Made by a program: the position numbers and the translations under genes | Source of the DNA: Thermoanaerobaculia bacterium | GTDB lineage: Bacteria > Acidobacteriota > Thermoanaerobaculia > Multivoradales > JAGPDF01 | Length of the DNA: 64,000 nucleotides | NCBI GenBank assembly: GCA_031403995.1 | Contig: JANNGS010000057.1 | Span: forward strand, 12,173 to 76,172 | Reading direction: 5' to 3' | The notes under the pieces: generated by a model | The model's input: only the letters and a program-made list of their open reading frames with translations | Told to the model about the DNA's origin: nothing | Database searches by the model: none | Part shown: positions 255 to 22,125 of the stretch, piece by piece | How the letters are laid out: each line of letters begins with the position of its first letter | How positions within the stretch are numbered: the stretch's first letter is position 1

Positions 255-1100
255 TTGCTCTTGCAGCCAGCGCAGAGCGTCAGTGGCTTGAGCTGGGTAG
301 GGGAGAGCGGCGATTTCGTGCAAGTGTTCGAGGGCAGGTATGCGGTCGAAGAGACCTGGGGAATCTGGGGCGAGCTCTACGAATCAGACAGCTCGTTCGT
401 GAGTGGGCCGGTTCGTATCAGCGACCCCGCGGTCCGCGAGGCCCGTCACCCCGCAGTGTCTCGAGACGCGCAAGGCGAGTTTCTCGTGGTTTGGGAGGCC
501 GATGGAAATCAGGACGGCGTTCCCGAGATTCGTGGCCGCAGGCTGGATCGCAATGGCGTACCCGTTGGCCCCGAGTTCGCGGTGGGCCCGGGGGAAGCGG
601 GAGAGAGCCAACGTCCGAGCGTGGCGCTCGACGCCGGAGGCAACGCCATTGTCGCCTGGGAGAGCCTCGATGCGACCACGGGGCTCAAGCAGGTTTGGAT
701 TCAAAGGCTGGACCGTGCCAACCGACGCGATGGTGATCCGCAGAGGGTGGGCGAGCCGCAGGACGCTTGGCCCGGGCCGAGAGTCGCCGGCGATCCCGCC
801 GGAAACGCCCTGCTCGTGTGGATGGAGGCGGACGGGGCCGCTGGAAATCAGCTTGTCTCCTTGTTCATCGGAGAGTCGGGGCGATTGAGAAATCAAGTCG
901 TCGCTTCGAGCCTGGCGACCGAGTTTCTCGCGCTTTCAGCCGTCGTCGCGACGAAGGCCGGTCGTTTCCAGGTGGAGTGGGAAGCGCTCGACCAGGGAAG
1001 CCCGACGCGTCGAAGCGCGCGCGACTACTCCACGCAGGGAGTCGCGATCGGGGGCGAACGTGCCGCTCCTTCAACTCTTGCCGGCGGCCCGGCTCAATGA
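255..1100 (+). CDS. Repeat protein paralogous to the downstream gene. It has four copies of a 40-50 aa unit of the form G-x-(F/I)-x-V-x-W-E...DG...R-R-x-D-x-x-G. No signal peptide is visible. The start is uncertain: TTG at 255, and in-frame sequence stays open back to 132.
   Basis: The ORF shares the repeat motif GxxxVVWE/GNAIVAWE/GNALLVWME with ORF 1097..3079. Its stop TGA overlaps the ATG of the next gene (ATGA). Composition is protein-like. Confidence 0.5.
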   Translation: MLLQPAQSVSGLSWVGESGDFVQVFEGRYAVEETWGIWGELYESDSSFVSGPVRISDPAVREARHPAVSRDAQGEFLVVWEADGNQDGVPEIRGRRLDRNGVPVGPEFAVGPGEAGESQRPSVALDAGGNAIVAWESLDATTGLKQVWIQRLDRANRRDGDPQRVGEPQDAWPGPRVAGDPAGNALLVWMEADGAAGNQLVSLFIGESGRLRNQVVASSLATEFLALSAVVATKAGRFQVEWEALDQGSPTRRSARDYSTQGVAIGGERAAPSTLAGGPAQ

Positions 1101-3079
1101 GAGCTTGGAATTGCAGCGTTCTCCTCACGGTTCTCATAGTGCCCTCGGTCTGGGCGCAAGCCCCCGTGGGCGATGAGTTTCGTGTCCACGAGAATATCGA
1201 CCGGGCCCAGAGAAACTCAGCGTCCTGCATGGATGCTACGGGCAGAGTCTTCTTCGTATGGGAGCAGGATTTTCAGATCTGGGGAAGGAACTTTGGCTCT
1301 TCGGGAGTTCCTACCTCACCTTCGTCGGAACTGACTGTACCGTCTTCTCCTCCATATGGGCACCGCCCACGCTGCGAATCGAACGCCTGGGGGGAGGGTG
1401 CGGCGGTTTGGGCGGGGGGGCCGCCAGCGCTCGTCGCCTTGAGGCCGATTGAGCTCGGAGTCGGAGCGCTTCCGGAGACTTTCTCGCTCTGGTCCGATCT
1501 CGCGTTTTCACCCGGCAATGCCTCCGTCAGCGTTCGTGCTGACGGGACTCGGGCGGTCAGCTGGGTGACAAGCGGTTCAACCTTGAGTCTCACAGATGTT
1601 TGGGTGCGAACGATCGGTCTCGATGGCAGCCTCGGTCCAGGGCCGATCCGGGCACAGCAGGACGGCGGTTACAACTCGAGCTATCCCACCGAGACGGACG
1701 TGGCTTGGCTCGATTCCGGGCGTCTGGTGGTGGTGTGGAACGCGCCGGGCGCCGACCTCGATCAGGATGGGGTACTGGCGCGGATCTTCGACGCAAATGG
1801 AAATCCGGAGGGACCGGCCTTTCTGGTCAACACCTACGAGATCGACCTCCAGGTCGATCCCGAGGTCGATTCCGACTCGTACGGCAACTTCACCGTCGTC
1901 TGGGACAGCTTCTGGCAGGATGGCAGTGGCGAGGGGATCTTCGCCCAGCGCTTCGACCATCTGGGCCAGAAGTTGGGGAACGAGATGCAGGTGAGCTCCA
2001 ACGCATACTCGGGTCAATACGAGCCGTCGATCTCTATCGATTGGGCCGGGAATTCGGTGGTCTCCTTCTCGAGCATCCAAGAAGAAAACCATCTCCGCGA
2101 AGACACATTCGTGAAGGCGTATAGGGCCGACGGAAGCACGCTTGGAGAGCAGTTGATGGTCAACCAGCAGATCATCTACGAGCAGGACGTGCCGAGCGTC
2201 TCGCTTTCGGACTCCGGGACCTTCGTCGTCTCTTGGCATAGCCATCAGGTCAACGATCTGCCGCTGGGGGCGGACCCCGACGTCATGGAGCGTCGCTTCA
2301 CGCTCCCGTGTTTGCCAGGACCGACGACGCTCTGCCTACTGGGCGATCGCTTTCTAGTGCGGGCGCTCTACGAAACTGCCGCTGGAGGTCGCGGCTTCGG
2401 CGAGGCGATCCCGCTCACATCGGGATCCGGAGGCTTCTGGTTCTTCTGGCCCGACAACTTCGAGCTGCTGGTGAAGGTCGTCGATGGCTGCAACTTCAAC
2501 AGGAGATTCTGGCTCTTCGCTGCCGGGCTCACCGACGTCAAGGTCGATCTCATTGTTACCGACACCTGGACCGGAACCGTCCAAACCTGGAGGAGCACTC
2601 TCGGTGAACCGTTCGCGCCGGTGCAACAGATCGAGCGCTTCGCGACCTGCGATGCGCCACGGCCAGTGAGCTTTGCGGCGGGCGCGACGAGCATGGCAAG
2701 ACCGCTTGCCACCTCGATGGAAACCGATCTCTGCTCTCCCGACACGACCCATCTCTGCCTCAACGACGGGCGATTCCGCGTTGGCGCCAACTGGCGCGCC
2801 TTCGACGGTCGACAGGGCATCGCGACGGCCGCCCCCCTCGCCGGCGACAGTGGTCTCTTCTGGTTCTTCGCACCCGAGATACTGGAGTTGGCGATCAAGG
2901 TAATTGATGGCTGCCAGTTGAACGATAGATTCTGGGTCTACACTGCTGGACTGACAAACGTCGAGGTTGACCTGACGGTGGAAGACTTGTTGCGGAATCG
3001 GTCATGGTCCTTCCACAACCCGGCGGGGCAGGCTTTCCCTCCCATTCTCGATTCTTCCGCCCTGGACACCTGCCCCTAA
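1097..3079 (+). CDS. Secreted repeat protein. It has a signal peptide, six copies of the same 45-50 aa repeat, and then two tandem copies of a roughly 110 aa Cys-bounded domain (motif FWFFxP..EL..KV.DGC..N.RFW...AGLT.V.VDL.V.D).
   Basis: The Met at 1097 is followed by MRAWNCSVLLTVLIVPSVWAQAP, an n-h-c signal peptide; the ORF track starts further upstream at 767 in the same frame. The repeats and the C-terminal duplication were read directly from the translation. Confidence 0.7.
   Translation: MRAWNCSVLLTVLIVPSVWAQAPVGDEFRVHENIDRAQRNSASCMDATGRVFFVWEQDFQIWGRNFGSSGVPTSPSSELTVPSSPPYGHRPRCESNAWGEGAAVWAGGPPALVALRPIELGVGALPETFSLWSDLAFSPGNASVSVRADGTRAVSWVTSGSTLSLTDVWVRTIGLDGSLGPGPIRAQQDGGYNSSYPTETDVAWLDSGRLVVVWNAPGADLDQDGVLARIFDANGNPEGPAFLVNTYEIDLQVDPEVDSDSYGNFTVVWDSFWQDGSGEGIFAQRFDHLGQKLGNEMQVSSNAYSGQYEPSISIDWAGNSVVSFSSIQEENHLREDTFVKAYRADGSTLGEQLMVNQQIIYEQDVPSVSLSDSGTFVVSWHSHQVNDLPLGADPDVMERRFTLPCLPGPTTLCLLGDRFLVRALYETAAGGRGFGEAIPLTSGSGGFWFFWPDNFELLVKVVDGCNFNRRFWLFAAGLTDVKVDLIVTDTWTGTVQTWRSTLGEPFAPVQQIERFATCDAPRPVSFAAGATSMARPLATSMETDLCSPDTTHLCLNDGRFRVGANWRAFDGRQGIATAAPLAGDSGLFWFFAPEILELAIKVIDGCQLNDRFWVYTAGLTNVEVDLTVEDLLRNRSWSFHNPAGQAFPPILDSSALDTCP
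2290..3079 (+). repeat. Internal tandem duplication encoding two roughly 110-aa domains (TLCLLGDRF...RFATC and HLCLNDGRF...LDTC) at the C-terminus of the 1097..3079 protein.
   Basis: The two segments align motif-for-motif: FWFF, ELxxKVxDGC, RFWxxxAGLTxVxVDL. Confidence 0.6.
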
Positions 3080-3185
3080 GTTCGCGTTGTCTGGGGAAGC
3101 ACCCGCACGCAGGATCCGAGTCCGCCCACCCAGGCTAGCTGGTTTCGCGCTGTCGCACGGATGCTAGGCTCGTCCGGGCCTCGCC
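3080..3185 (+). promoter_or_regulatory. 5' leader/promoter region of the Ni/Co ECF-transporter operon. It may hold a metal- or B12-responsive element, but no riboswitch consensus was recognised by eye.
   Basis: A 106-nt non-coding gap lies directly upstream of cbiM. cbiM/nikM operons are usually controlled by B12 riboswitches or NikR; this element is inferred, not observed. Confidence 0.2.
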
Positions 3186-4286
3186 ATGCACATTCCGGAC
3201 GGTTATCTCAGTCCCTCGACCTGCGCGGCGCTCTATGCCGCGGCGCTGCCGTTCTGGACGGTGGCGCTGCGCCGGGTGCGGACGCTGCTGGCAACGCGCT
3301 TCGTGCCTTTGATCTCGCTCTTCGCGGCTTTCTCCTTCGTCATCATGATGTTCAATCTGCCGCTGCCCGGTGGAACGACGGGGCATGCGGTGGGGATCGC
3401 GATGGCGGCGATCGTGCTCGGGCCGTGGGGGGCGACTATCGCGATCTCGGTGGCGCTCGCGATCCAGGCGTTGCTCTTCGGCGACGGCGGAATCCTCACC
3501 CTGGGCGCCAACTGCTTCAACATCGCCATCGCCGGCTCGTGGGTCGCGGCGGCGGTCTACCGGTTGGCCGCGGCAGGGGCACCCCTGCTCGCGCCGCGGC
3601 GCGTCTTCGCCGCTGGGCTGGCCGGATACTGTGCGATCAACGCCGCGGCATTCCTGACCGCGCTCGAGCTGGGTGTGCAGCCGATGCTCTTTCACGACGC
3701 GACCGGCGCGGCGCTCTACGCTCCCTACCCGTTGAAGGTCGCGGTGCCGGCGATGATGCTCGGGCATCTGACCTTCGCCGGACTGGCAGAGGCTCTGCTC
3801 ACCGCCGGTGTCGTGCGCTACCTGCAGCAGAGCGAGCGTGAGCTCCTGGGCGGGGGCGCCCGAACCTCCGTCGGCATGTCGCCATTGGGTGGCATCGCGC
3901 CTGCCGGGGGCGGCTCCACGCGCCGGCTCTGGGCGTGGCTCGGCCTGCTCCTGGTGCTCTCGCCGCTCGGTCTGCTCGCCGCCGGCAGCGCCTGGGCGGA
4001 GTGGAGCCCGGAAGATCTCGCTGACCCGGTTGCACGAGCGGCGATCGCGGCGGTGAGTGGCGGAGCGGAGCTGCCCGCGGTAGCTCCGAGCGGTCTCGGC
4101 CGCCTAGCGACTCTTTGGACGGCGCCGGTGCCGGACTACGCTCCGGCTTTCCTGCGCAGCGCAGCGATGGGCTATCTAATCTCGGCCCTCGTCGGGGTCG
4201 GGATCATCGTGCTCACGGTCGTCGGACTGCAACTCCTCGTCGACCGGACGCGACGCGGCGGGCCGCAAGCCGCGCCCTCCCTCTGA
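3186..4286 (+). CDS. cbiM: ECF-transporter substrate-capture component CbiM/NikM (Ni2+/Co2+) with a fused C-terminal CbiN/NikN-like two-TM extension.
   Basis: The N-terminus MHIPDGYLS is the hallmark metal-binding start of CbiM/NikM. The body is polytopic and hydrophobic. An extra roughly 120 aa with two TM segments resembles the small N component. Confidence 0.8.
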   Translation: MHIPDGYLSPSTCAALYAAALPFWTVALRRVRTLLATRFVPLISLFAAFSFVIMMFNLPLPGGTTGHAVGIAMAAIVLGPWGATIAISVALAIQALLFGDGGILTLGANCFNIAIAGSWVAAAVYRLAAAGAPLLAPRRVFAAGLAGYCAINAAAFLTALELGVQPMLFHDATGAALYAPYPLKVAVPAMMLGHLTFAGLAEALLTAGVVRYLQQSERELLGGGARTSVGMSPLGGIAPAGGGSTRRLWAWLGLLLVLSPLGLLAAGSAWAEWSPEDLADPVARAAIAAVSGGAELPAVAPSGLGRLATLWTAPVPDYAPAFLRSAAMGYLISALVGVGIIVLTVVGLQLLVDRTRRGGPQAAPSL

Positions 4287-5167
4287 TGTCTCGCGAGCGA
4301 CCGAAGGCGACAGCGGCGGCGATCGCCTCGCCGGGTTTTCGCCTGGCCGGCAGGTCGCCGGTGGAACGAACGCTGGAGGAGCTGTTGCGGGTCGCCGAGC
4401 GCTCCCTGCACGCCGAAGAGACGGCGAGGCGCGGTGGACTTCTGCAGAAGCTCGACGCGCGCGCCAAGTGGATCGGCCTCGGCGGTCTCGTCCTGGCGGC
4501 GGGACTGGCGCGCAGCTTCGCGGTGCTCGGAGCGCTGTTCAGCCTCGCGCTGCTGCTCGCCCTGCTCTCTCGCCTGCGCTTGCGCGAGCTCGCACTGCGG
4601 GCCTGGTTGCCGGCGCTGCTCTTCACGGGGTTGGTCGCCGGCCCGGCGCTCTTTCTCACCCCGGGGCCGGCACTCGCCGGGTTCGCGGGTTTGCCCGAGG
4701 CGCTGGGGGTAAGTACCACCGGGGCGCGCGCTGTCGGCTTCCTCCTGCTGCGCGTCGAGGCGATCACCTCGTTCACGCTGCTCCTCGTGTTGACCACTCC
4801 GTGGGCGCGCCTGCTCGCGGCGCTGCGCGGCCTGCGCGTGCCGGCGACGGTGGTGGTCATCCTCGGCATGACCTATCGCTTCCTCTTTCTGCTTCTTTCG
4901 AGCACCCACGATCTCTTCCTCGCCCGGCGCAGCCGGTCGGTCGGCCGCCTCGCGCCGCGCGCGTCACGGCAGCTCTTCGCGCGTACGACCGGCGTTTTGC
5001 TCTCGCGAACCGTCGCCACCAGCCAGCAGGTCTACCTCGCGATGATCTCGCGCGGTTCCTCCGGCGACGTGCGGCTGCTCGATCCGCTGGCGATGCAGGG
5101 GCGGGATTGGGGCGCCGTCGCGACGAGTCTCGGGCTCGCTGCCGTGGCTATCTGGGTGGGTCGATGA
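4286..5167 (+). CDS. cbiQ: ECF transporter transmembrane (T) component CbiQ.
   Basis: The segment VLTTPWARLLAALRGLRVP...ILGMTYRFLF is typical of CbiQ/EcfT. Its ATG overlaps the cbiM stop (TGATG). The track ORF 4115..5167 is in the same frame. Confidence 0.75.
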   Translation: MSRERPKATAAAIASPGFRLAGRSPVERTLEELLRVAERSLHAEETARRGGLLQKLDARAKWIGLGGLVLAAGLARSFAVLGALFSLALLLALLSRLRLRELALRAWLPALLFTGLVAGPALFLTPGPALAGFAGLPEALGVSTTGARAVGFLLLRVEAITSFTLLLVLTTPWARLLAALRGLRVPATVVVILGMTYRFLFLLLSSTHDLFLARRSRSVGRLAPRASRQLFARTTGVLLSRTVATSQQVYLAMISRGSSGDVRLLDPLAMQGRDWGAVATSLGLAAVAIWVGR

Positions 5168-5985
5168 GCTCTGCACAGGTACCGCTCTACGAGCTGCGCG
5201 AGGTGAGCTATCGCTACGAGGAGATCGTCGCGATCGACGCCTGCTCGCTGACCATCGAGCGCGGCTCGCGTGTCGCGCTGCTCGGCGCCAACGGTTCAGG
5301 CAAGTCGACGCTGCTCATGCTGCTCGATGCCCTGCAGCCGCCGAGCGCGGGGTCGATCCACTTCGACGGCCGCGAGCTCTCGCCCGCGGCGCTGCTCGAC
5401 GAACGCGTGAACCACGACTTCCGGCGCCGTGTCGGTTTCGTCTTCCAGAACCCGGAGGTGCAGCTCTTCAATCCGACGGTGCGCGACGAGATTGCCTTCG
5501 CCCCGCTGCAGCTCGGCTGGCCGGCGGAGAAGATCCGCGACGAAGTGGAGCGGATGGTCGACCGGATGCAGCTGCGCCAGGTCGTCGAGCGCCCGACCTT
5601 CCGGCTCTCGATGGGCGAGAAGAAGCGGGTTGCGATCGCCTCTGTACTCATCCTCGACCCGGAGGTGATGCTCCTCGACGAGCCGACCGCCGGCCTCGAC
5701 CCGCGCAGCCAGAGCGGGGTCATCGACCTGCTCGAGGAGTGGCAGGGGAGCGGACGGACGGTAGTGCTGGCGACCCACGACCTCGGCGTGATCGAGGAGG
5801 TCGCCGACCGCTGCCTGGTCTTCCAGGAAGGCCGGCTGGTCGCCGACCACACCCCGAAAGAGACCGTCACCGACCTCGACCTTCTCGCCCGCACCGGCCT
5901 CGTCCACAGCCATCGGCATTCGCACCGCTCGGGTCTGCACCACGCGCATCCTCATCTCCACCGCCACGAGCACGGCGAGTCGTAG
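5164..5985 (+). CDS. cbiO: ECF transporter ATPase CbiO with a His-rich C-terminal tail (HSHRHSHRSGLHHAHPHLHRHEHGES).
   Basis: It has Walker A GANGSGKST, the ABC signature LSMGEKKRVAIA and Walker B LLDEPTAGLD. The ATGA overlap with cbiQ was seen in the sequence. Confidence 0.85.
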   Translation: MSSAQVPLYELREVSYRYEEIVAIDACSLTIERGSRVALLGANGSGKSTLLMLLDALQPPSAGSIHFDGRELSPAALLDERVNHDFRRRVGFVFQNPEVQLFNPTVRDEIAFAPLQLGWPAEKIRDEVERMVDRMQLRQVVERPTFRLSMGEKKRVAIASVLILDPEVMLLDEPTAGLDPRSQSGVIDLLEEWQGSGRTVVLATHDLGVIEEVADRCLVFQEGRLVADHTPKETVTDLDLLARTGLVHSHRHSHRSGLHHAHPHLHRHEHGES

Positions 5986-6008: not shown

Positions 6009-9000
6009 TCAGCCCAGGCGCTCGAGCTCGGCGGCGAGGACGTCGACGTGTGGTGGCTCGAGCATTGAGAGATGGTCGCCCGGCACCGGCACAATCGCGA
6101 GCTCGCAGCCGGTTCGCCGCATGAACTCCGCATAGAGTCCGCCGGAACGCACGGTGGCGGCTAGAAAGGTCACCCTGCCGTCCCAGGCGCCGGGAAGGTA
6201 GCGCGCCAAGGCGGCTTCGTTGGCTCGCAAGACGCGGGTGAAGTGGCGGTATTCGTTCGCCTTGATCACCTCGTCGCGGCCATCCTTGAAGCGGCGAAGG
6301 CGGCGCCGCAGGCGCCCCAGGAGATCGCCCGCGGAGCGCCGCAGCCGGTCGTGAATCCACGCCCTTGCGGAGAGGGGCTCAGGGCGAACCCCGGGCAGGA
6401 CCTCGGCCAGCTCGGTGTCGAACATAGCGATCCAGGAGATTTCGTTGGGCCTCGCGAGGCGCGCCATCTCGTAGGCCACGACGCCTCCGAACGACATGCC
6501 GGCGATGCGGTAGGGCGGCGGGATCGGATGCGCCCGAACCTCCGCCAGAAGAATCTCCGCGAGCTCCTCGATCGTCTGCGGGATCGGTCGGTGGTCGTCG
6601 AGGCCCGGACTCTGAAGGCCGATGAGGAGGCGCCCGGGTGCAAGGATTCGCGCCAACGCGACCAGGCGGAGCAAGTGCCCACCGAGCCCGTGAACGCAGA
6701 AGATAACCGACGCCGCCCGCGCCGCCGGCGACGTCGGCGGGACGATCGTCACCAGGTTCGAGGCTTCTCCGAGACCAGACTCCGGCGCCATCTTGGAGCG
6801 CAATTCGGCCACGAGACCCGCGAGCGTCGGCGAGCGCAGGAGCTCGGCCACGCGGAGTGGAGCTCCGAACGCGGCTTCGATCCCGACGAGCAGCGAGACC
6901 GCGGCGAGAGAATCGCCGCCCGAAGCGAAGAAATCGGCGTCGCGAGAGATCGGCGTCACGTCGCCACGGCCGAGGGCGAGCTGCCAGATCTTCGCCAGCC
7001 GCTGTTCCAGAGGATCGCCGACCGACCCGAGCGCTTTCTCCCCGCACGCAGCCTCCGGCTTCGCGGGCGGAGGCGACGAGCTCTCACCCACCAGGCGATC
7101 GAAGTCGACCTTGCCGGCGAGGGTGAGTGGCAGGAAGGCGACGGCGAGGAGCGGGCTTGGGCGCAAGTACGCGGGCAGCCGCCGTTCGCACTCGCCCGCG
7201 ACCGCGGCGAGGTCTGCCCCGGTCGCGAGCACGACCCATCCGCTCAGGCGGAAGCCGCCCGCGGCCAGCGGTGCTGGCGCGACTGCGGCTGCGGAGACGC
7301 CGGCAATCGCGCGCAGCGTCGCCTCGACCTCTCCCGGCTCGACCCGTCGTCCAGCGATCTTGACTTGCCGATCGAGCCGGCCGAGAAACTCCAGCTCGCC
7401 GTCGCCGCGCCGGCGCACCCGGTCGCCGGTGGCATAGAAGCGATCAGAGCCACGACCTTGCTCGTCGCCGCCATCGCCGTCGGCGTTGCCGGAGGGGTCG
7501 AAGCGGGCGAATCGCGCCGCGGTCAGGTCGGGCCGCAGGTGATAGCCCCGCGCCAAGCCGCGGCCGCCGAGCCAGAGCTCCCCGGACTCGCCGGCAGCGA
7601 CTTGCCGGCGTTCGGTATCGAGGACGACGGCCCGCACTCCCTCGACCGGGTGCCCGATCGGCAGGCCGTTTCTCTCTGTGAGGTCGGAGGCGCGACGCGG
7701 CGCGTTCCACCATGTCGCCACGATCGTCGTTTCGGTCGGACCGTAGGTGTTGATGAGGCGCTTGCCGGCGGTGGCCTCGAGCCAGACGCGCGCGGCGCGC
7801 CCGCTCGCCAGCTCGCCGCCGAGAACCAGCAGGCGCAGGCTCGGCGGGAGCTCGAGGCCGTGAGCATCGACTTCCGTCGCGGCCTGCTCCCAGACCGCGG
7901 TCGGCAGGTCGAGGATGGTGACATCGAGCTCGCCGCAGCGCGCCAGGAGCTCGCGTGGCGCCGGCAGTGCAGGCTCGTCGAAGGCTACCAGCGTGGCGCC
8001 GTGGCAGAGCGCTCCGAAGATCTGTTCGAGGGCGAGATCGAACGCCGGCGAGGCAAGCTGAAGAATCCGGTCGCTGGGGGAAATCTCGAACTCGCGGCCC
8101 GCGGCTGCGATGTAGTGGGCGAACGCATGGTGCTCGACCGCGACTCCCTTGGGCGCGCCGGTCGAGCCCGAGGTCGCGGCGACGTAGGCGAGATCCCAAG
8201 GTTGCGCCGCCTGCCGCGGTTCGGCGCCGCTGCTCAAGGGCGAGTGCTCGCAGCCGTCCGCGAGACCGACCGGATGCATCGGAAGGTGCTGCAGAAGCGG
8301 CAGTAATGCAGCGGGGCGGTGCGGTGCGGATTCTCCGACTGCCAGCAGCGGGCGGTTCTCGGCGAGGATCCGAGCCACGCGATCCGGCGAGTCGAGGGCA
8401 TCGAGGACGAGAAAAGCGCCGCCGGCCTCGTGCACGGCGAGCATGGCCGTGACCAGATCGGGAAGGCGCCGGAGGCGCAGCGCCACTAGTCTCCCAGGCC
8501 CGACGCCGCGCCGCGCGAGGGCCGCAGCGAGGCGGCTCGCCCGCTCATTCAATTGCCGATAGCTCCAGCGCTCGTCACCCCACTCGACGGCGAGCGCGTC
8601 CGGCCTCCTTTCGGCGTGGGCCCGAAAGCGCTCGCCCACCGTGGGGATGCGTTCCGCAGGGAGGAGCGTCCCTGGCGTCGGACGACCGGCGACGTGCCTG
8701 CGGAGCCGGCGAGCGAAGCGGTGTGCAAAGTCTGTGAGGGAATCGCTCTCCGGAGGCAAGCGGGTGCGCAACGTCACCTTGCGGAGTCCGGGATCGACGG
8801 CGATCGTGAGGCGTATCGCACCTTCGGCAGGGAGGCCCGGGGGCGTCTCTCCGACGGTCAGCAGGTCGAGTGCCACGGCTGGACCGCATGGAAGACCGGA
8901 TCCGGTGGCGGCCGCCGTCAGCCGACGGCTGCGCAGGGGGAGATCCGTCGGGAACGTGCCGCGTGTCCGCAGGCGCGTGCGCTGTTCAGTCAAGTCGCGC

Positions 9001-10307
9001 GCCACCTCATCGAGCTCGATGCTCTCCCGAAAGGGTACGTGAATCGGCAGGCGCGCCACGAGAAAGCCCTGCCAGCCGTGCGCGGCGATCTCGGCGCGCA
9101 GCTCGGGTTCGCCGAAAGCGACGTCGAACGGTTGGCCGATCTCACCGCCCACCGCGAGGAGTATGGCGGCGACCAGGGTCTCGGTCTCGACTGGAGTATT
9201 CGGCGGCAGATCGAGCTCGATGCTGGCATCGGTAGTCGCCGAGCCGTGGCAAACGGTTTCGAACTCGGGCGGCAGGAGCGGTGCAAGCTCGACGAGCCTG
9301 CTGATCCACTCTGCCTCGTGGCGTTGGCACTCCCGTTCCCGGGCGACGAGGGGCTCGGGGTCGGGAGCGGTCGCGGCGAGGCGTTCGCCGATGGCCGCTC
9401 CGAGGCGGTCGAGGGCTGCCTGCGGAGCGATCGCGACGCCGTCGAGCGCCGTGAGCTGGGCGATGCGCAAGTCCGAGGTAGCTGTCGCGATCTCGAGGCC
9501 ATGGGCTCCGGCGCGCAGGATCGTGCCGGGCGGGGCTCCGCTGCGCGTGCCGAGGATCGTGACCTGCGGCGCCAGGAAGACTCCGCCAGGGACGACGAGC
9601 TTCGGGATGCCCATCGGGTTGTCGGCCGCGCCGAAGTCGAGCCCGCGCACGAAGGCCGATATGCGCTCCGCGGATTCGTTCCACGGCACGACGCAGCCGG
9701 GCGACGGGCGGCGCCAGCCCGGGAAGTAGGTGCGCGCGGCGCGCGTCTGCGGGCGAGAACTGAGCGTGCCGCTCGCCAGCCCGGCGAGGAGCTCTCCGAA
9801 GCTCTCGATCGCTGCCTCGGTGCAGCGCAGGTTGAGCGTCCAGGCGGTCTCGTCGGGAGCGAGCGCGAGTGCGCGTTCGACGAGGAGCTCGCCCATGTCG
9901 AGCTCTGGTGTCATGCGGTGCCAGACGATGCCGTGCCGATGCTCTCCCTGGTCGATCGCCCACGAGGTGGCGTGGAGCCCGGCGTACCGCGGCAGCGGCG
10001 CATCGTGGTAGTTGATCGCCATCCAGCGCGCCAAAGCGAGGAGCGCCGGCGGCAGAAGGCGCAGGTTGTGAACGGAGAGCAGGAGATCGAAGGGCGCGCC
10101 AGCAATTAGGGCTTCGACGTCGCCGTGGGTGAGGGGCGCCTGCGCTGACAGGAAGCAGCAGGCAATCCGGTTCTCGGCTGCCCAGCTGGCGACCCGGCCG
10201 TCACCCGTGACGACTCCGAGCACGGAATGACCGCCTTCGAGGAGCATCTGCCCACAGCGCACCGTCACTGCAGCGTCGCCTACGAGGACAGAAGAGAGGC
10301 GGCGCAT
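6009..10307 (-). CDS. Single-module NRPS-like megasynthase. The domain order is N-terminal methionyl-tRNA-formyltransferase-like domain, a vestigial linker with no HHxxxDG, an adenylation domain, a peptidyl carrier protein, and a thioesterase (F-A-T-TE).
   Basis: The formyltransferase-like N-terminus (HNLRLLPP...NYHDAPLPRYAG...SWAIDQGEHRHGIVWH) is followed by A-domain cores LAYVAATSGSTGAPKGV, NTYGPTET, YATGD and KIAGRRVEPGEVE. The carrier motif is FFASGGDSLAAV. The thioesterase has VHGLGG and the GMSFGG nucleophile elbow. The track ORF runs to 10403, but the Fmt-like domain begins at the Met at 10307. Confidence 0.85.
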   Translation of the reverse strand: MRRLSSVLVGDAAVTVRCGQMLLEGGHSVLGVVTGDGRVASWAAENRIACCFLSAQAPLTHGDVEALIAGAPFDLLLSVHNLRLLPPALLALARWMAINYHDAPLPRYAGLHATSWAIDQGEHRHGIVWHRMTPELDMGELLVERALALAPDETAWTLNLRCTEAAIESFGELLAGLASGTLSSRPQTRAARTYFPGWRRPSPGCVVPWNESAERISAFVRGLDFGAADNPMGIPKLVVPGGVFLAPQVTILGTRSGAPPGTILRAGAHGLEIATATSDLRIAQLTALDGVAIAPQAALDRLGAAIGERLAATAPDPEPLVARERECQRHEAEWISRLVELAPLLPPEFETVCHGSATTDASIELDLPPNTPVETETLVAAILLAVGGEIGQPFDVAFGEPELRAEIAAHGWQGFLVARLPIHVPFRESIELDEVARDLTEQRTRLRTRGTFPTDLPLRSRRLTAAATGSGLPCGPAVALDLLTVGETPPGLPAEGAIRLTIAVDPGLRKVTLRTRLPPESDSLTDFAHRFARRLRRHVAGRPTPGTLLPAERIPTVGERFRAHAERRPDALAVEWGDERWSYRQLNERASRLAAALARRGVGPGRLVALRLRRLPDLVTAMLAVHEAGGAFLVLDALDSPDRVARILAENRPLLAVGESAPHRPAALLPLLQHLPMHPVGLADGCEHSPLSSGAEPRQAAQPWDLAYVAATSGSTGAPKGVAVEHHAFAHYIAAAGREFEISPSDRILQLASPAFDLALEQIFGALCHGATLVAFDEPALPAPRELLARCGELDVTILDLPTAVWEQAATEVDAHGLELPPSLRLLVLGGELASGRAARVWLEATAGKRLINTYGPTETTIVATWWNAPRRASDLTERNGLPIGHPVEGVRAVVLDTERRQVAAGESGELWLGGRGLARGYHLRPDLTAARFARFDPSGNADGDGGDEQGRGSDRFYATGDRVRRRGDGELEFLGRLDRQVKIAGRRVEPGEVEATLRAIAGVSAAAVAPAPLAAGGFRLSGWVVLATGADLAAVAGECERRLPAYLRPSPLLAVAFLPLTLAGKVDFDRLVGESSSPPPAKPEAACGEKALGSVGDPLEQRLAKIWQLALGRGDVTPISRDADFFASGGDSLAAVSLLVGIEAAFGAPLRVAELLRSPTLAGLVAELRSKMAPESGLGEASNLVTIVPPTSPAARAASVIFCVHGLGGHLLRLVALARILAPGRLLIGLQSPGLDDHRPIPQTIEELAEILLAEVRAHPIPPPYRIAGMSFGGVVAYEMARLARPNEISWIAMFDTELAEVLPGVRPEPLSARAWIHDRLRRSAGDLLGRLRRRLRRFKDGRDEVIKANEYRHFTRVLRANEAALARYLPGAWDGRVTFLAATVRSGGLYAEFMRRTGCELAIVPVPGDHLSMLEPPHVDVLAAELERLG

Positions 10308-10401
10308 GGACAGGCCAAGCGTATAGCGAGAGGAGTCGTTGAAACCCCATCGACGGGAGCTGGCTTCGCGCCGGCACGCGAGGGAGTAGACTCCCCGCCG
10401 C

Positions 10402-11070
10402 ATGGGCGGCCGACACCTGTTTCCGCGCTTGCGCTGGTTGGGGCTCGCCTGGCTGGTGGTCTACCTGCCGTCGTATGCGATCGCCTACGGTTTCACCAAC
10501 TTCCTCTTTCTCTGCAACCTCGGCGTGATGCTCACCGCGGCGGCGCTGCTGGGCGAGAGCCGCCTGGTGCTCTCGAGCCAGGCGGTGGCGGCGCCGGTGA
10601 TCGGCCTCGCCTGGGCAACCGATGCCGGCTGGCGGGTGGTGACCGGGGCGCACCTGTTCGGCGGCACCGAGTACATGTGGGATCCGCAGTACCCGCTGTT
10701 CACCCGGCTGCTCTCGCTCTACCACCTCGCCTGGCCGGTGATCGTCGTCGTGCTCGTGCGGCGGGTCGGTTACGACCGTCGCGGCTGGGCGCTCCAGGCC
10801 ACCATCGCCGCCGCCGCGCTGGTCGTCTGCCGCCTGTTCACGGCGCCGGCGGAGAACATCAACTTCGCCTTCGTCGATCCGGTCTTCGGCCGGGCGTTCA
10901 CGCCGCCGGCGCTGCACCTCGCGATCGTCTTCGTCGCCCTCGCGGGCGTCGCCTACGGCGCGACCCACCTCGCGCTGCTGCGGTTCGCGGCGCGCCGGAG
11001 CGACGGCGGAACCGCAACGGCTCCGGACGCCGCCAGCGACGCCCTCCTCGACCGGGCTACCGCAGGCTGA
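10402..11070 (+). CDS. Hypothetical polytopic membrane protein, divergent from the NRPS-like gene.
   Basis: It has at least five hydrophobic helices and protein-like composition. The opposite-strand ORF 10201..10968 is Arg/Asp-rich junk. Confidence 0.55.
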   Translation: MGGRHLFPRLRWLGLAWLVVYLPSYAIAYGFTNFLFLCNLGVMLTAAALLGESRLVLSSQAVAAPVIGLAWATDAGWRVVTGAHLFGGTEYMWDPQYPLFTRLLSLYHLAWPVIVVVLVRRVGYDRRGWALQATIAAAALVVCRLFTAPAENINFAFVDPVFGRAFTPPALHLAIVFVALAGVAYGATHLALLRFAARRSDGGTATAPDAASDALLDRATAG

Positions 11071-11925: not shown

Positions 11926-13512
11926 ATGCCTGGCGTGCTGCGCCTCGACTACCTCTCGCCGCTGCCGCCGGTGCGCTCCGGCATTTCGGACTACAGTCTC
12001 GAGCTCCTGCCGCACCTCGCCGAGCGCGCCGACGTGCGGGTGCTGCATCTGCCGGACCTGCCTCTCGACCCCGAGATCGCGGCGCGCTTCCGGCCGGTCG
12101 AGGCCGCGCGGGTCGGCGAGGACGGGCGCCTGCCGCTCTACCAGATGGGCAACAACAGCTATCACGCGGCGGTCTGGGAGCTCGCCATGGCGCGGCCGGG
12201 CGTCCTCGTGCTGCACGACCTCGTCCTGCATCACTTTCTGCTCGATCGCACAGTGGGAAAGGGGGAGTTCGAGCCCTATCGCGAGGCGCTCGAGCGCGAT
12301 CACGGCTGGGTCGGCGACGCTGCGGCGCGGCCGGTGCGTTGGGGTGCCTTCGGGCGCGCGGCACAGTTCTTCCTGCCGGCGAACCGGACCCTCTTGCGCC
12401 GTCAGCGCGGCGTGCTGGTGCACGGCCAGTGGGCAGCGTCGGTCTTGCGGGAAGAGGACCCGGAGCTCGCCGTGCGGGTGGTCTCGATGGGCATTCCACT
12501 GCCGCCGCCGGCGAGTCGCGCCGTCGGCCTGGCGTTCCGCAAACAGTGGCATATACCGCCCGCGGCGCTTCTCCTCGGCTCGTTCGGCTTCCAGACGCCG
12601 ATCAAACGCACCGACGTGGCGATCTGCGCGCTCGCTTCGCGCGGCCTCGAAGGCGTGCACCTTCTGATTGCCGGCGAGCTTTCGCCGTACTCGAACTACG
12701 CCGCGCTCGCCGCCGAGCTCGGCGTCTCGGACCGCGTGCACGTCACCGGCTTCCTGCCGTTCGAGCAGCTCGACGCAGCGATTTCGGCCACCGATCTCTG
12801 TCTCAACCTGCGCTACCCGACCGCCGGCGAAACCTCGGCCTCGCTCCTGCGCATCCTCGCTGTCGGGCGCCCGGTGGTGGTGTCGGATTACGCCGATTTC
12901 GGCGATCTGCCCGAGGAGCTCGCGGTCCATATCCCTCCCGGCGAGGGCGAGATGGAGAAGCTCGCCGCGGCGCTGGCGCAGCTGCTCGACGACCGCGCCG
13001 GGCTCGACCGGATGGGCGAGGCGGCGCGTCGCTACGTCGCCGATGTGCACGCCCCCGAGCGCGCAGCGGACGAACTGGTGGCCGCCGCCACGGAGCTCGC
13101 GAAGCTCGCGCCGCTGGCCGAGCGCCCGCCGCAGCCGGGTCCGCGCACCACGGCGGTTCAAAGACGTGTGCCGGGCCGGATCGTCGTCTACGGCTGCGAA
13201 GACTGGCCCCCCGGCGAGCGTCGCAAGCTCGAGGTCGAGGTCGTCAACGACAGCCGCATCCGCTGGTTGCCGAGCCAGGCACTGCCGGGCGGGGTCATCT
13301 TCGAGGTGCAGTTCCTCTCCGAAGGGCGTGACCTCTATCGCGGACGGCGCTGGCTCTCGTTGCCGGAGGCGCTCGAACCGGGCGCGTCGCGGCGTTTCGT
13401 CCTCGAGCTGCGCCGTCCCGAAGCGGCGGCCCGCCTGCTGATCAAGCCGACGTTGCAGATCGTCGAGGGGCACCGGCCGCTCGGCGCCTGGGAGTGGGAC
13501 CGGTGGGTCTGA
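11926..13512 (+). CDS. Glycosyltransferase family 1 (GT4-like) with an extra roughly 120-aa C-terminal domain.
   Basis: The GT1 C-terminal Rossmann motifs GFLPFEQLDAAISATDLCL and GETSASLLRILAVGRPVVVSDYADF are present. The extension carries an RRFVLELRRPE beta-rich tail. Confidence 0.8.
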   Translation: MPGVLRLDYLSPLPPVRSGISDYSLELLPHLAERADVRVLHLPDLPLDPEIAARFRPVEAARVGEDGRLPLYQMGNNSYHAAVWELAMARPGVLVLHDLVLHHFLLDRTVGKGEFEPYREALERDHGWVGDAAARPVRWGAFGRAAQFFLPANRTLLRRQRGVLVHGQWAASVLREEDPELAVRVVSMGIPLPPPASRAVGLAFRKQWHIPPAALLLGSFGFQTPIKRTDVAICALASRGLEGVHLLIAGELSPYSNYAALAAELGVSDRVHVTGFLPFEQLDAAISATDLCLNLRYPTAGETSASLLRILAVGRPVVVSDYADFGDLPEELAVHIPPGEGEMEKLAAALAQLLDDRAGLDRMGEAARRYVADVHAPERAADELVAAATELAKLAPLAERPPQPGPRTTAVQRRVPGRIVVYGCEDWPPGERRKLEVEVVNDSRIRWLPSQALPGGVIFEVQFLSEGRDLYRGRRWLSLPEALEPGASRRFVLELRRPEAAARLLIKPTLQIVEGHRPLGAWEWDRWV

Positions 13513-15167
13513 AGACCGTCGGCGTTCTGCTGCTCGCGGTCCTGCTGGGGGGAATACTCTGGCTGGCGGCGACGGTGGCGCCGGAGCGTCCGCCGGCGCC
13601 GGGAGCCGAAACGACGAACTGGCTGGCGGCGCACAGCCTGGCCATCGACCACGATGAGGTTTTCGTCGATGCCGATGCCGTGCGCTTCCGCGCCGCTTTC
13701 GCAGAGAGCCCGCGCGGAGTGCGTACCGATCCGCACGGCGGCAGATTGGAGGCGCCTTATCTCGCGACCCGCCTGTGGAGCTGGTCGATCCTTCTCGCGG
13801 GCGAGCGCGGACCGTTTCTTCTCAATGCCCTGGCGCTCGTGCTGGCGGCCGCTGCGGGGAGCTGGGCGCTGCGCGCGCCGCTCGGCGCGGCCGCGCCGGT
13901 CTGGGTGGCGCTCTTTCTGTTCGGCTCGGTCGCCTTCACTGCGGTCTTCCGTTGGCAGAGCGAAGTCCTCGTGTTCGCCGCTGTCGTTCTCGCCGGTGCG
14001 CTGGTTTGGGGACGCGAGGCGCCGGCGATCCTCGACCGCGGAGCGGACCAGATCTACGGTGGTGACCTCGAGAGGCCCGCGGCAGTCTGGCCCTGGCCGC
14101 TCGCCGGACTGCTGGTCGGTGCCGCGGCCGTGCGCCACCCGGCCTACGCCCTGATCGCCCTGCCGATGCTCCTCGACATGCCGCGCATGCAGGAGTTGGG
14201 CGGCAAAGTCCGGGCAGGTCTGCTCTTCGTGCTCCCTCTGCTGTTGCCGGTCGCTTTCGTCCTGGCCGCGCAGGGAGCTCCCTGGGAGGCGCTGCCAACG
14301 GTCTTTCATCCGGCACTGCTGGGCTGGAACGCTCTCTACCTGGCGATCGGCAGAAACGCCGGGCTGGTGGTGGGCTTCCTGCCGATCCTGGTGTTGCTGC
14401 TCTCGCCGCGCAAGTCCGGCGGCCGGCGCCTCCTGCCGCTGGTGGTCGCGCTGGCGGCGATCGCTCAGCTGGTGCTCGCGCCGTTCGATTGGGCCGGGGA
14501 TCTCTCTGCAGTGGGTAATCCCTGGTTCCTGCCGCTTTACGGTGCCCTCTTTTTCTGCGCCGGACCGGCGCTTCGGTTGCGTTCGGCGCTCCTGGTCGCG
14601 CTCGCGGTCGTGCCGTTTCTGCTGCCCTTCTGGATCTCGCCGCTGTCGGACAGTACCCGGCCTCCGGCGGCACTGGAGGCGTTCACTTCGCGACTCCGGC
14701 AGCGGCTGCCGTTCGAAACCTCGCTGCGGGTCCTCCCCGGGAGCACCGAGCTGGCCCGGGCCGGCGTCCGGCTCCGCAGCACCGGGCCCTCGATCCGGCC
14801 TCTCGGCGGCCGGCTGGCGCTCGACGGCGGGCACGCGACGCTGCTCGTCGCGAGCGATCGCGCCCTCTCTTCGGTGCGCCTCGACTTCAGCGCCAACGCG
14901 CCGGGGACGCTCGCGGTCGAAGGCGGCACGACCGGCAGCACGACCTTCCGGCCGAGCGGCGAGGTGGCGTTCGAGATCGCGCTGGGCCGTCCGGCACGCC
15001 GGCATCCGCTGTGGTGGAGCCGCGCCCCGGTGTCGATCTATGTTCTCCGGTTGGAGCTTCCAGGGGCGAGTAGGATGGGCTCGCAGGGCCCAGCTGCTGC
15101 GACGGATCCGGTGACCTTCGACCTGGGACTGGCGCGCGTGGCCGGGCCGGAGGCCGCCAGACCATGA
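13494..15167 (+). CDS. Polytopic membrane protein (at least 11 TM) with a C-terminal soluble extension. It may be a GT-C/ArnT-like glycosyltransferase or a DUF2079-like protein.
   Basis: Hydrophobic helices run throughout. Its start overlaps the GT1 stop and its stop overlaps the NUDIX start (ATGA), suggesting one operon. Confidence 0.55.
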   Translation: MGPVGLKTVGVLLLAVLLGGILWLAATVAPERPPAPGAETTNWLAAHSLAIDHDEVFVDADAVRFRAAFAESPRGVRTDPHGGRLEAPYLATRLWSWSILLAGERGPFLLNALALVLAAAAGSWALRAPLGAAAPVWVALFLFGSVAFTAVFRWQSEVLVFAAVVLAGALVWGREAPAILDRGADQIYGGDLERPAAVWPWPLAGLLVGAAAVRHPAYALIALPMLLDMPRMQELGGKVRAGLLFVLPLLLPVAFVLAAQGAPWEALPTVFHPALLGWNALYLAIGRNAGLVVGFLPILVLLLSPRKSGGRRLLPLVVALAAIAQLVLAPFDWAGDLSAVGNPWFLPLYGALFFCAGPALRLRSALLVALAVVPFLLPFWISPLSDSTRPPAALEAFTSRLRQRLPFETSLRVLPGSTELARAGVRLRSTGPSIRPLGGRLALDGGHATLLVASDRALSSVRLDFSANAPGTLAVEGGTTGSTTFRPSGEVAFEIALGRPARRHPLWWSRAPVSIYVLRLELPGASRMGSQGPAAATDPVTFDLGLARVAGPEAARP

Positions 15168-15757
15168 GTCAGACACTCCCCTGGATTCTCGCAATGCGCG
15201 CCCGCCTCGAGGCGCCGGCGCCGCGCCGGCTGGTGCCGGGCGAGGCCCGGCAGGCGGCGGTCCTGGTACCGCTCTACGTCGACGCCGGGATGCTCTGGAC
15301 GCTGCTCACCAAGCGCACCGACAGTCTGCCGCAACACCGGGGGCAGGTCGCCTTCCCGGGCGGCGGCAAAGAGATGGGGGAGGACTCCTGGGGCGCCGCG
15401 CTGCGCGAGGCCGACGAGGAGATCGGCCTGCCGCCGAAGCGGGTTCTGCGCCTCGGCGAGCTCGACGAGGTCGCGACGCCTTCGGGTTTCCGCATCGTTC
15501 CCTGTGTTGGCGCGATTCCCTTCCCGTTCGAGCTCAAGCCGAATCCCGGCGAGATCGACGAGACTTTCGCCGCGCCGTTGGGCGAGCTGGCGAACCCGAA
15601 GTTGATCGAGGACCGCGAAGTGCTGATCAACGGTCAGCGCCGGACGCTGCGCATCTACCACGTCGGCCGCTTCCTCATCTGGGGCGTCACCGCCCGCATC
15701 CTGCAGAACCTCCTCGAACGTGTCGGCATCTCGAGCAGCTACGAGCTCGAGCCTTGA
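15164..15757 (+). CDS. NUDIX hydrolase, CoA pyrophosphatase subfamily (NudL-like).
   Basis: The Nudix box is GGGKEMGEDSWGAALREADEEIGL, and the preceding LLTKR...HRGQVAFPGG motif is typical of CoA pyrophosphatases. Confidence 0.8.
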   Translation: MSQTLPWILAMRARLEAPAPRRLVPGEARQAAVLVPLYVDAGMLWTLLTKRTDSLPQHRGQVAFPGGGKEMGEDSWGAALREADEEIGLPPKRVLRLGELDEVATPSGFRIVPCVGAIPFPFELKPNPGEIDETFAAPLGELANPKLIEDREVLINGQRRTLRIYHVGRFLIWGVTARILQNLLERVGISSSYELEP

Positions 15758-19977: not shown

Positions 19978-20073
19978 TTGATTCTAAGGCCTTTGATGAG
20001 CGCCGTGCAACATCGGATTGGAGCCCTCTGAAACGCCCGGCTCGGGCAGGGCGTGCTAGTGTCCAACCCCGTC

Positions 20074-22023: not shown

Positions 22024-22125
22024 TCGGCGCGCGATTTGTTGCGCGGCAAGTCACTGATTCTGCTGCAGTTGCCTGCCTGAACCCGGGCGGTGGCCGGGGC
22101 TCGCGTGCTACGCTCCCCACCCGCC

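Follow-up and report, generated by a model that had tools for sequence, protein, structure and literature searches.

The window, a stretch of 64,000 nucleotides from a Thermoanaerobaculia bacterium (contig JANNGS010000057.1), carries on its minus strand a gene for a single-module protein resembling nonribosomal peptide synthetases (NRPS). The longest open reading frame at this locus in the ORF list spans 6009..10403 (minus strand), and the ATG at 10307 gives a protein of 1432 amino acids whose N-terminus (MRRLSSVLVGD) aligns with those of the orthologues. The Pfam scan upheld the domain order proposed in the initial annotation, namely formyltransferase (F), adenylation (A), carrier (T) and thioesterase (TE), and a further region, C*, lies between F and A. 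The features are as follows.

6009..10307, minus strand: whole F-C*-A-T-TE gene, single-module NRPS-like, 1432 amino acids (ORF list, translation, Pfam, orthologue-supported start)
9408..10307, minus strand: formyltransferase part, residues 1-300, with N-terminal catalytic and C-terminal beta-barrel subdomains (Fmt/ArnA type)
9897..10013, minus strand: codons of the catalytic residues Asn99, His101 and Asp137 (family alignment A1)
8637..9332, minus strand: C* region, residues ~326-557, a condensation-domain C-terminal lobe without N-lobe and HHxxxDG
7083..8636, minus strand: A domain, residues ~558-1075, code DLEDVGTIVK (Pfam AMP-binding and AMP-binding_C, TIGR01733, alignment to GrsA)
6804..7004, minus strand: carrier (PCP/T) domain, residues 1102-1168, with Ser1133 in GGDS (codon 6909-6911; Pfam PP-binding)
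6033..6704, minus strand: type I thioesterase, residues 1202-1425, with Ser1272 (codon 6492-6494) and His1412 (codon 6072-6074; Pfam)
6009-6011, minus strand: stop codon

The gene is intact and complete. Its 3' end lies 23 bp from the convergent cbiO and its start 95 bp from a divergent gene, and orthologues with the same one-module architecture are found on contigs of 169 kb, 339 kb and 2.9 Mb. This spacing and these orthologues rule out that the protein is a piece of a larger multi-module NRPS, which the initial annotation had named as the finding that would overturn it. A split version in the related locus L001 (540 + 884 amino acids) and a three-piece version in L011 were considered as a two-protein system and rejected as assembly frameshifts, since many neighbouring genes of L001 are also broken and intact orthologues exist. 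The Rfam scan of the entire window returned no lysine, THF or cobalamin riboswitch, and a scan for consensus promoters and terminators near the gene gave either nothing or hits at chance level.

Pfam matched Formyl_trans_N at residues 66-167 (4.5e-16) and Formyl_trans_C at 207-290 (1.3e-3), the latter falling under the curated cut-off on the window sequence alone. The best structural and profile matches of this part were the ArnA formyltransferase domain and Fmt, spanning both subdomains (~300 residues). These matches indicate that the F part is a full Fmt/ArnA fold with both subdomains, and they bear out the earlier assignment of an Fmt-like fold with its C-terminal subdomain. Asn99, His101 and Asp137 do not vary across alignment A1 (14 sequences with 30-51% identity to that of the window). 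We take them to be Asn108, His110 and Asp146 of E. coli Fmt, from reading the sequence by eye against the Fmt motifs. By the same reading, the Asn/His/Asp triad and an HxxLLP-like motif (HDAPLP in the window protein) are common to ArnA and Fmt; the substrates of these enzymes are UDP-Ara4N or Met-tRNA and, unlike the window protein, they have no NRPS fusion.

The region of about 250 amino acids between F and A had been read as a linker without a condensation domain. This reading was half right: HHxxxDG is absent from the whole translated sequence, but half of such a domain is present. Family profiles of C* matched the condensation-domain C-lobe (hhalign 98.7%) as well as solved C domains, and the alignment spans template columns 200-450 only, downstream of the HHxxxDG motif. 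Pfam on residues 300-555 alone returned nothing even at E=10, and the C-lobe emerged only with the family profiles. Judged by these matches, the linker is what remains of a condensation domain, its C-terminal lobe, and the catalytic N-lobe is missing. A spacer of 200-340 residues separates F from A in 122 family members. A comparable half-C domain, catalytically dead and needed for activity, has been published for ACV synthetases before the first A domain. The C* of ACV synthetase and the ADA domain of Lys2-type reductases resemble the window protein by description, in that an isolated C-lobe without HHxxxDG directly precedes the first A domain; unlike in those proteins, a complete formyltransferase here precedes the C-lobe and replaces the lost N-lobe.

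The A domain was matched by AMP-binding at residues 561-923 (5e-72), by AMP-binding_C at 993-1066 and by TIGR01733 (364 bits against a cut-off of 317). Its specificity code was read by alignment to a GrsA sequence whose ten marker residues checked out. The code begins with Asp235 and ends with Lys517, as in A domains that activate amino acids. It is identical in the window protein, L009, L013, P0016 and P0017, although the overall identity of these proteins is ~50%, and the clade that carries it has so far been found only in Acidobacteriota. DLEDVGTIVK agrees at eight of ten positions with DTEDVGTVVK and at seven of ten with DIEDVGSVVK, the published lysine codes of ScoA and Rv0101/MmaA, and by these counts it is closest to published lysine codes. 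Lysine-activating A domains have codes of the type D-x-E-D-x-G-[ST]-[VI]-V-K, with acidic residues at 239 and 278, and ornithine codes can be as close as one residue away. The published codes DGEDHGTVVK (lysine) and DGEDHGTVTK (ornithine) are one residue apart, so the code does not separate the two amino acids, and the amino acid loaded is probably lysine-like. A search of published supplements for matching specificity codes found none.

The carrier domain was matched by PP-binding (residues 1102-1168, 1.6e-12), and Ser1133, the phosphopantetheine attachment site, is invariant in the family. The C-terminal domain is a thioesterase (residues 1202-1425, 1.6e-12; PF00975 with 48.6 bits against a cut-off of 26.4), and profile scans matched no reductase domain at the C-terminus. 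Its GxSxG motif is GMSFG with Ser1272; Gly1270, Gly1274 and His1412 are near-invariant, and the catalytic Asp was not located. Of 18 members, 15 have Ser at position 1272 and three have Cys.

It is usual to describe formylating NRPS modules from one structural model, LgrA, and to call them rare. The initial annotation followed this view, which is countered by the size of the family found here. An exhaustive search at E<1e-30 gave 1309 clusters (50% identity), and more than 600 loci were found in GTDB species-representative genomes. OzmO, CongA and the published Fmt-A-T-R enzyme also speak against rarity. The names in the protein collection ('amino acid adenylation domain-containing protein') were uninformative. 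The family, which extends over many phyla, comprises loading modules, stand-alone F-C* proteins and self-contained F-C*-A-T-TE enzymes. Most members serve larger systems as initiation modules (F-C*-A-T-C, F-C*-A-T with PKS, or multi-module proteins), and about 20 of the best 150 matches are also F-C*-A-T-TE. The window protein has the two-subdomain fold, the triad, the C-lobe and the A and carrier domains of the long (OzmO-type) form and, by these features, belongs to the family.

The family appears to include the F-A-PCP loading module of oxazolomycin type. OzmO, of 1196 amino acids, was proposed to formylate Gly-S-PCP, and N-formylation was also proposed for CongA, whose F domain is 59% identical to that of OzmO. 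The modules of OzmO (oxazolomycin), CongA (conglobatin) and rhizopodin type are thus alike in proposed chemistry, the formylation of a PCP-tethered amino acid. The length of OzmO is the size expected for F(~290)-C*(~280)-A-T, a layout likened to that of the window protein by the published length and by the Streptomyces locus L074. There, a 1207-amino-acid F-C*-A-T gene with a glycine code has Formyl_trans_N, Formyl_trans_C and a gap of ~285 amino acids. Next come a 376-amino-acid gene and one for KS-ACP, as in the published ozmO-P-Q layout. The N-terminal part of the 1207-amino-acid protein shares 34% identity with the window protein over residues 2-463. Modules of the OzmO/CongA type load glycine, which goes to a PKS to form an oxazole, and have no TE, whereas the window protein has a lysine-type code, a C-terminal TE and no partner synthase nearby.

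LgrA, which was shown in vitro to N-formylate its tethered amino acid, has an initiation module (F-A-PCP; PDB 5ES5, 6MFZ) in which, as in the window protein, an N-terminal folate-dependent formyltransferase fold is fused to A-PCP, and its A-PCP is the best solved-structure match to the window protein (E 1.6e-123). However, the LgrA F domain has ~193 residues, aligns to profile positions 64-202 only, and lacks both the Fmt C-terminal subdomain and the C* lobe, so that the A domain starts at residue ~204 instead of 556. LgrA also continues into further modules, whereas the window protein stops at the TE. By profile comparison, the LgrA F domain is a more distant relative than the OzmO/CongA type. 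Closest in logic, compared by description, is the mollusc FmtATR of the bursatellin/oxazinin pathway, a single formylating module followed by a release domain; its proposed product is N-formyl-tyrosinol, and only its T-R part was assayed. FmtATR is animal-encoded, uses tyrosine and releases by an NADPH-dependent reductase in place of a thioesterase. As its loading module belongs to this large and partly characterised family, the window enzyme is an uncharacterised variant and no new kind of system. Literature searches on F-A-T-TE-type proteins and single-module formylating NRPSs found nothing, in agreement with the earlier remark that no characterised pathway could be recognised.

We consider it somewhat more probable than its alternatives combined that this one-module formylating NRPS is a stand-alone enzyme making N-formyl-lysine (or N-formyl-ornithine) or its lactam. 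For a stand-alone single module, one would naturally predict an N-formyl product of one residue, and the release of a single N-formyl amino acid, as first predicted, fits this anatomy. We infer the formyl donor, the formylated amine, the amino acid and the release chemistry as follows. The A domain would activate a basic amino acid, of which L-lysine is the most likely and ornithine a possible one, and load it onto the phosphopantetheine arm of Ser1133. The carrier domain would bring the aminoacyl thioester to the N-terminal Fmt/ArnA-type domain, which would move a formyl group from N10-formyl-tetrahydrofolate onto the amino group of the tethered amino acid. C*, without the catalytic motif, most likely still contacts the A domain as in a usual C-A platform, and the module would pivot on this contact. 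Ser1272 of the TE would then accept the N-formyl-aminoacyl group and release it, either by hydrolysis, giving N-formyl-lysine, or with the free side-chain amine as attacking nucleophile, giving an N-formyl lactam. A published precedent exists for a TE that closes a lactam on a terminal ornithine derivative.

The gene neighbourhood bears on whether the product is released or transferred. Thioesterases may also hand their substrates to outside acceptors or make oligomers, and sequence alone does not tell these activities apart. The TE could pass the (formyl-)aminoacyl group to an envelope glycan or lipid built by a GT1 glycosyltransferase, a polytopic 557-amino-acid protein and a 222-amino-acid membrane protein. 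The genes for GT1, the 557-amino-acid protein and a NUDIX hydrolase are 1.6 kb away and overlap at their stop and start codons, the 222-amino-acid gene is divergent, and at L007 a glycan cluster (GT2, GT4, Wzy_C, Glyphos_transf) contains a distant F-C*-A-T-TE together with A-T-TE and C-A-T-TE proteins. However, the window neighbours (TonB, glycosyltransferase, membrane protein) recur only in relatives of at least 70% identity (L001, L004, L009; Thermoanaerobaculia MAGs), where synteny is uninformative, and are absent within 10 kb of orthologues at 43-57% identity, so the link to them that the initial annotation implied was not supported. In three comparisons (tblastn of the window neighbours against 88 loci, and all-against-all comparison of orthologue flanks and of ten TE-terminated loci), only the gene itself, shadow ORFs and generic histidine kinases recurred, the kinases being the one neighbour family shared among the ten loci. 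Transfer to an envelope acceptor is thus unlikely. The ideas of a TonB/siderophore function and of a dedicated exporter were dropped, as no neighbour was conserved in the three comparisons.

Slightly less likely again is that the protein initiates an assembly line encoded elsewhere, as most of its family do, and passes on N-formyl-lysine, the TE being an editing or vestigial domain. An A-T-C-A-T-TE NRPS lies 3 kb upstream of the orthologue L013, which speaks against the stand-alone reading and makes cooperation in trans possible there. Against this, a type I TE that stands at the C-terminus and has its Ser and His conserved is a domain for product release, and it is kept throughout the clade down to ~42% N-terminal identity. 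Pfam found no other NRPS/PKS gene in the scanned parts of the 64-kb window, and none is near the orthologues L005 and L006. The scanned parts also held no lysine/ornithine N-hydroxylase, MbtH-like protein or phosphopantetheinyl transferase.

Thioesterase domains form oligomers or macrocycles in enterobactin and gramicidin S synthesis, and iterative TEs on single modules are established for EntF. By this precedent, an iterative TE could link N-alpha-formyl-lysyl units via their epsilon-amines into a short oligomer or macrocycle, since a lysine-type code leaves a second nucleophilic amine after one is formylated; we regard this as very improbable, as sequence does not separate an oligomerising from a hydrolytic TE, and epsilon-poly-lysine synthetase has a different, membrane-bound architecture with an A domain that is only a distant match. 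Equally improbable is that the Fmt-like domain hydrolyses formyl-THF, formylates the pantetheine thiol or is purely structural: 10-formyl-THF dehydrogenase, which also uses a pantetheine arm, and HypX move formyl to a thiol or water, but fusion to an amino-acid-activating A domain, as in LgrA, OzmO and CongA, and the invariant triad speak against it.

The formation of a one-residue N-formyl product remains the preferred reading. Beyond it, as a long shot, are the proposals that the DLEDVGTIVK clade makes a previously unseen small metabolite without a helper enzyme and, more generally, that F-C* is a chimeric pseudo-condensation domain. In this view, the formyltransferase would have replaced the N-lobe, with formyl-THF in the role of the upstream donor and the old C-A platform retained. 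The candidate metabolites would be N-formyl-amino-caprolactam or an epsilon-linked N-alpha-formyl-lysine oligomer.

Current concepts are unchanged by the F-C*-A-T-TE finding. The long-form family, with its full Fmt/ArnA fold and leftover half condensation domain, is much larger than the usual description suggests and is present in many phyla. Should N-formyl-lysine or its lactam indeed be made by the window enzyme alone, bacteria would have a simple counterpart of the animal Fmt-A-T-R enzyme, and the protein would also be a compact biocatalyst.

The synthetase is a single-module NRPS-like enzyme made up of a formyltransferase part (F), a condensation-domain C-lobe without its N-lobe (C*), and adenylation (A), carrier (T) and thioesterase (TE) domains. 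Its gene is complete. The longest minus-strand frame in the ORF listing is 6009..10403, and the start is the ATG at 10307 (MRRLSSVLVGD), where the orthologues begin in the alignment, so that the initial annotation had the coordinates, 6009-10307 (1432 aa), correct. Between the stop codon and the end of the convergent cbiO there are 23 bp, and between the start and the divergent gene 95 bp. The window composition fits a genome of ~70% GC, and the nearest relatives are Thermoanaerobaculia (Acidobacteriota) MAGs. In two MAG assemblies (L001 10001-14237, L011 9983-14187), frameshifts divide the orthologous gene into two or three ORFs. Since the genes around the L001 orthologue are likewise fragmented, the broken orthologues are most likely assembly errors, and such assemblies can mimic a split F-C* plus A-T-TE system in databases.

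The Pfam scan found the formyltransferase N-terminus, adenylation, carrier and thioesterase domains that had been proposed from the sequence, and TIGR01733 (NCBIfam amino-acid adenylation) scored above its cut-off:

Residues 66-167: Formyl_trans_N (4.5e-16)
Residues 207-290: Formyl_trans_C (1.3e-3, sub-threshold)
Residues 561-923: AMP-binding (5e-72)
C-terminal to AMP-binding: AMP-binding_C
Residues 1102-1168: PP-binding
Residues 1202-1425: Thioesterase

The TE nucleophile (window residue 1272) is Cys instead of Ser in 3 of the 18 F-C*-A-T-TE proteins in the T-TE alignment.

Asn99, His101 and Asp137 are invariant among 14 sequences aligned over their first ~560 residues (the window protein and relatives 30-51% identical to it). 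These residues lie in NYHDAPLPRYAG and ELDMGELL, which we read as corresponding to the Fmt/ArnA catalytic motifs. Over both subdomains, the family profile matched ArnA residues 17-314 (1.8e-35) and E. coli Fmt 15-301 (5e-33), whereas the match to the LgrA F domain was limited to profile positions 64-202 (about 1e-21).

The region before the A domain had been called a linker, with no condensation domain present. It is true that there is no working C domain, as the catalytic N-lobe is absent, but the region itself is a conserved domain. Residues ~300-555 alone gave no Pfam match. When the C* region of 122 family members was aligned against condensation domains, it matched template columns 200-450, downstream of HHxxxDG, with a probability of 98.7% (E 1.7e-16). 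The family profile also matched the C-terminal halves of solved C domains, namely McyB 180-479 (2e-18), Txo1, Txo2, TycB and SrfA-C, and in the family proteins P0082 and P0097 Pfam Condensation positions 191-455 match the C* region directly. By these profile comparisons, residues ~300-555 are a condensation-domain C-lobe and not a linker. ACV synthetases and Lys2-type reductases likewise have an isolated C-lobe before their first A domain, and their activity depends on it. It is documented that the C-A pair is the core platform of an NRPS module and that the small F domain of LgrA has a smaller interface; the simplest inference is that C* would retain the C-A platform while the formyltransferase stands in for the N-lobe.

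In an exhaustive HMMER search with synthetase residues 1-560, 12,580 proteins passed E<=1e-3, and 1309 cluster representatives reached E<1e-30. When the window's own domains were mapped onto the best 150 matches, the majority were F-C*-A-T (~1170-1230 aa) and about 20 were F-C*-A-T-TE (~1350-1590 aa); others were F-C*-A(insert)-T proteins of ~1550-1600 aa, F-C*-A-T-C proteins, and synthetases of several modules, in some of which F-C*-A units occur internally. When one genome per species was scanned for the pattern, at least 600 loci were found, and the 80 kept came from Acidobacteriota, Chloroflexota, Myxococcota, Cyanobacteria, Streptomyces, Devosia, Mycobacterium and others. Among these 80, F-C*-A-T whose A domain has a luciferase-like monooxygenase insert was the commonest architecture; the insert has ~400 residues at L082 9989-14578 and about 25 other loci (~1550-1590 aa), and in Devosia such a gene adjoins, divergently, a KS-AT-KR-DH-ACP-TE polyketide synthase. 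The A-domain codes of the family are diverse (Gly, Cys, Thr, Asp/Asn, Val/Ile and beta-Ala types, as we read them), which suggests that F-C*-A-T serves as a general-purpose formylating initiation module. Stand-alone F-C* proteins without an A domain also occur (L002 6091-7773, L003 7786-9246); a 560-aa one directly precedes a C-A(luciferase-like insert)-T synthetase, and no synthetase is encoded near the 486-aa one. In-trans formyltransfer, or some other role, is possible for them.

In oxazolomycin biosynthesis, the 1196-aa F-A-PCP protein OzmO has been proposed to formylate glycyl-S-PCP, and its gene precedes ozmP (382 aa) and ozmQ, which encodes a PKS. The F domain of CongA (conglobatin) is 59% identical to that of OzmO and only 23% to that of LgrA. 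A Streptomyces sp. locus (L074) has the ozmO-P-Q layout: a 1207-aa family member (Formyl_trans_N plus Formyl_trans_C, a ~285-residue gap, A, T) with the glycine code DILQLGMIWK, and downstream a 376-aa protein without Pfam matches and a KS-ACP protein. From this gene layout we infer that the window module belongs to the OzmO-type family. A one-module precedent is the mollusc FmtATR (Fmt-A-T-R), the proposed maker of N-formyl-tyrosinol, whose T-R part reduces N-formyl-tyrosyl thioesters.

Alignment of the A domain to GrsA (with its ten marker residues correct) gave the code DLEDVGTIVK. The same code is found in L009, L013, P0016 and P0017 and a nearly identical one in P0018-P0023, although their overall identity is only 42-57%; thus the binding pocket is strongly conserved in a clade that has so far been seen in Acidobacteriota only. 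The closest published codes, DTEDVGTVVK (ScoA) and DIEDVGSVVK (Rv0101, MmaA), were both read as lysine. A single-residue difference can separate lysine from ornithine codes, so we call the substrate lysine-like with moderate confidence.

The synthetase gene lies between a cbiM/N-Q-O transporter on the left and, on the right, genes for a membrane protein, a TonB-C protein, a glycosyltransferase, a polytopic protein and a NUDIX hydrolase:

767-5985, plus strand: cbiM(+PDGLE)-cbiQ-cbiO transporter with an upstream ORF
10402-11070, plus strand: 222-aa hydrophobic protein, divergent from the synthetase gene
11926-13512, plus strand: GT1 glycosyltransferase
13494-15167, plus strand: polytopic 557-aa protein, no Pfam match
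15164-15757, plus strand: NUDIX hydrolase
20053-24075, plus strand: two tandem Kup-type potassium transporter genes (656 and 661 aa)

The scanned parts of the rest of the window held transporters, regulators and hydrolases and no biosynthetic genes. Of the other loci, only L001, L004 and L009, with orthologues 70-87% identical, have the right-hand neighbours; at 43-57% identity the surroundings are entirely different, and the adjacency to tonB and glycosyltransferase genes carries no weight. Ten TE-terminated loci shared no neighbour family beyond histidine kinases. As no neighbours are conserved beyond close relatives, the enzyme appears to work alone.

The stop and start codons of the GT1, 557-aa and NUDIX genes (11926-15757) overlap, which suggests a single operon. 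Compared with L001, GT1 and NUDIX show 96-98% identity, and the N-terminal 560 residues of the synthetase 87%. The 222-aa protein matches no Pfam family, is predicted to span the membrane 4-5 times and occurs only in the closest relatives, and L009 has a partial second match on the opposite side of the synthetase gene. Rfam found no cobalamin or Ni/Co riboswitch at the cbiM-cbiQ-cbiO transporter. The 770-aa ORF upstream of cbiM (767-3079), with no Pfam match and lower GC, may not be a real gene.

We somewhat favour a reading in which the A domain would adenylate a lysine-like amino acid and the carrier tether it, the F domain would formylate it there with formyl-THF as donor, and the TE would release the N-formyl amino acid or its lactam. 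The initial observation was confirmed, and its interpretation was only partly borne out. Transfer of the product by the TE to an envelope acceptor is unlikely but is kept alive by a distant member in a glycan cluster (P0080 locus, L007 1-24416). This locus encodes three TE-terminated NRPS-like proteins, C-A-T-TE, A-T-TE (911 aa) and F-C*-A-T-TE (1471 aa), among GT2/GT4 glycosyltransferases, Wzy_C, a glycerophosphotransferase-like protein, PEP mutase and asparagine synthase, and looks like surface-glycan decoration with amino acids by NRPS-like enzymes. Action in trans with another synthetase is slightly less probable still. An A-T-C-A-T-TE synthetase (2177 aa; L013 153-6686, an Acidobacteriota MAG) lies 3 kb upstream of the orthologous F-C*-A-T-TE gene, and such a neighbour was absent from all other orthologues examined. 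Iterative oligomerisation and an F domain that does not N-formylate are both very improbable.

Taken together, the window synthetase is an uncharacterised variant of a known and widespread module, with TE release, a lysine-type code and a stand-alone setting. Of the side results, the most useful is that the long-form F domain carries the remnant lobe of a condensation domain throughout the family.
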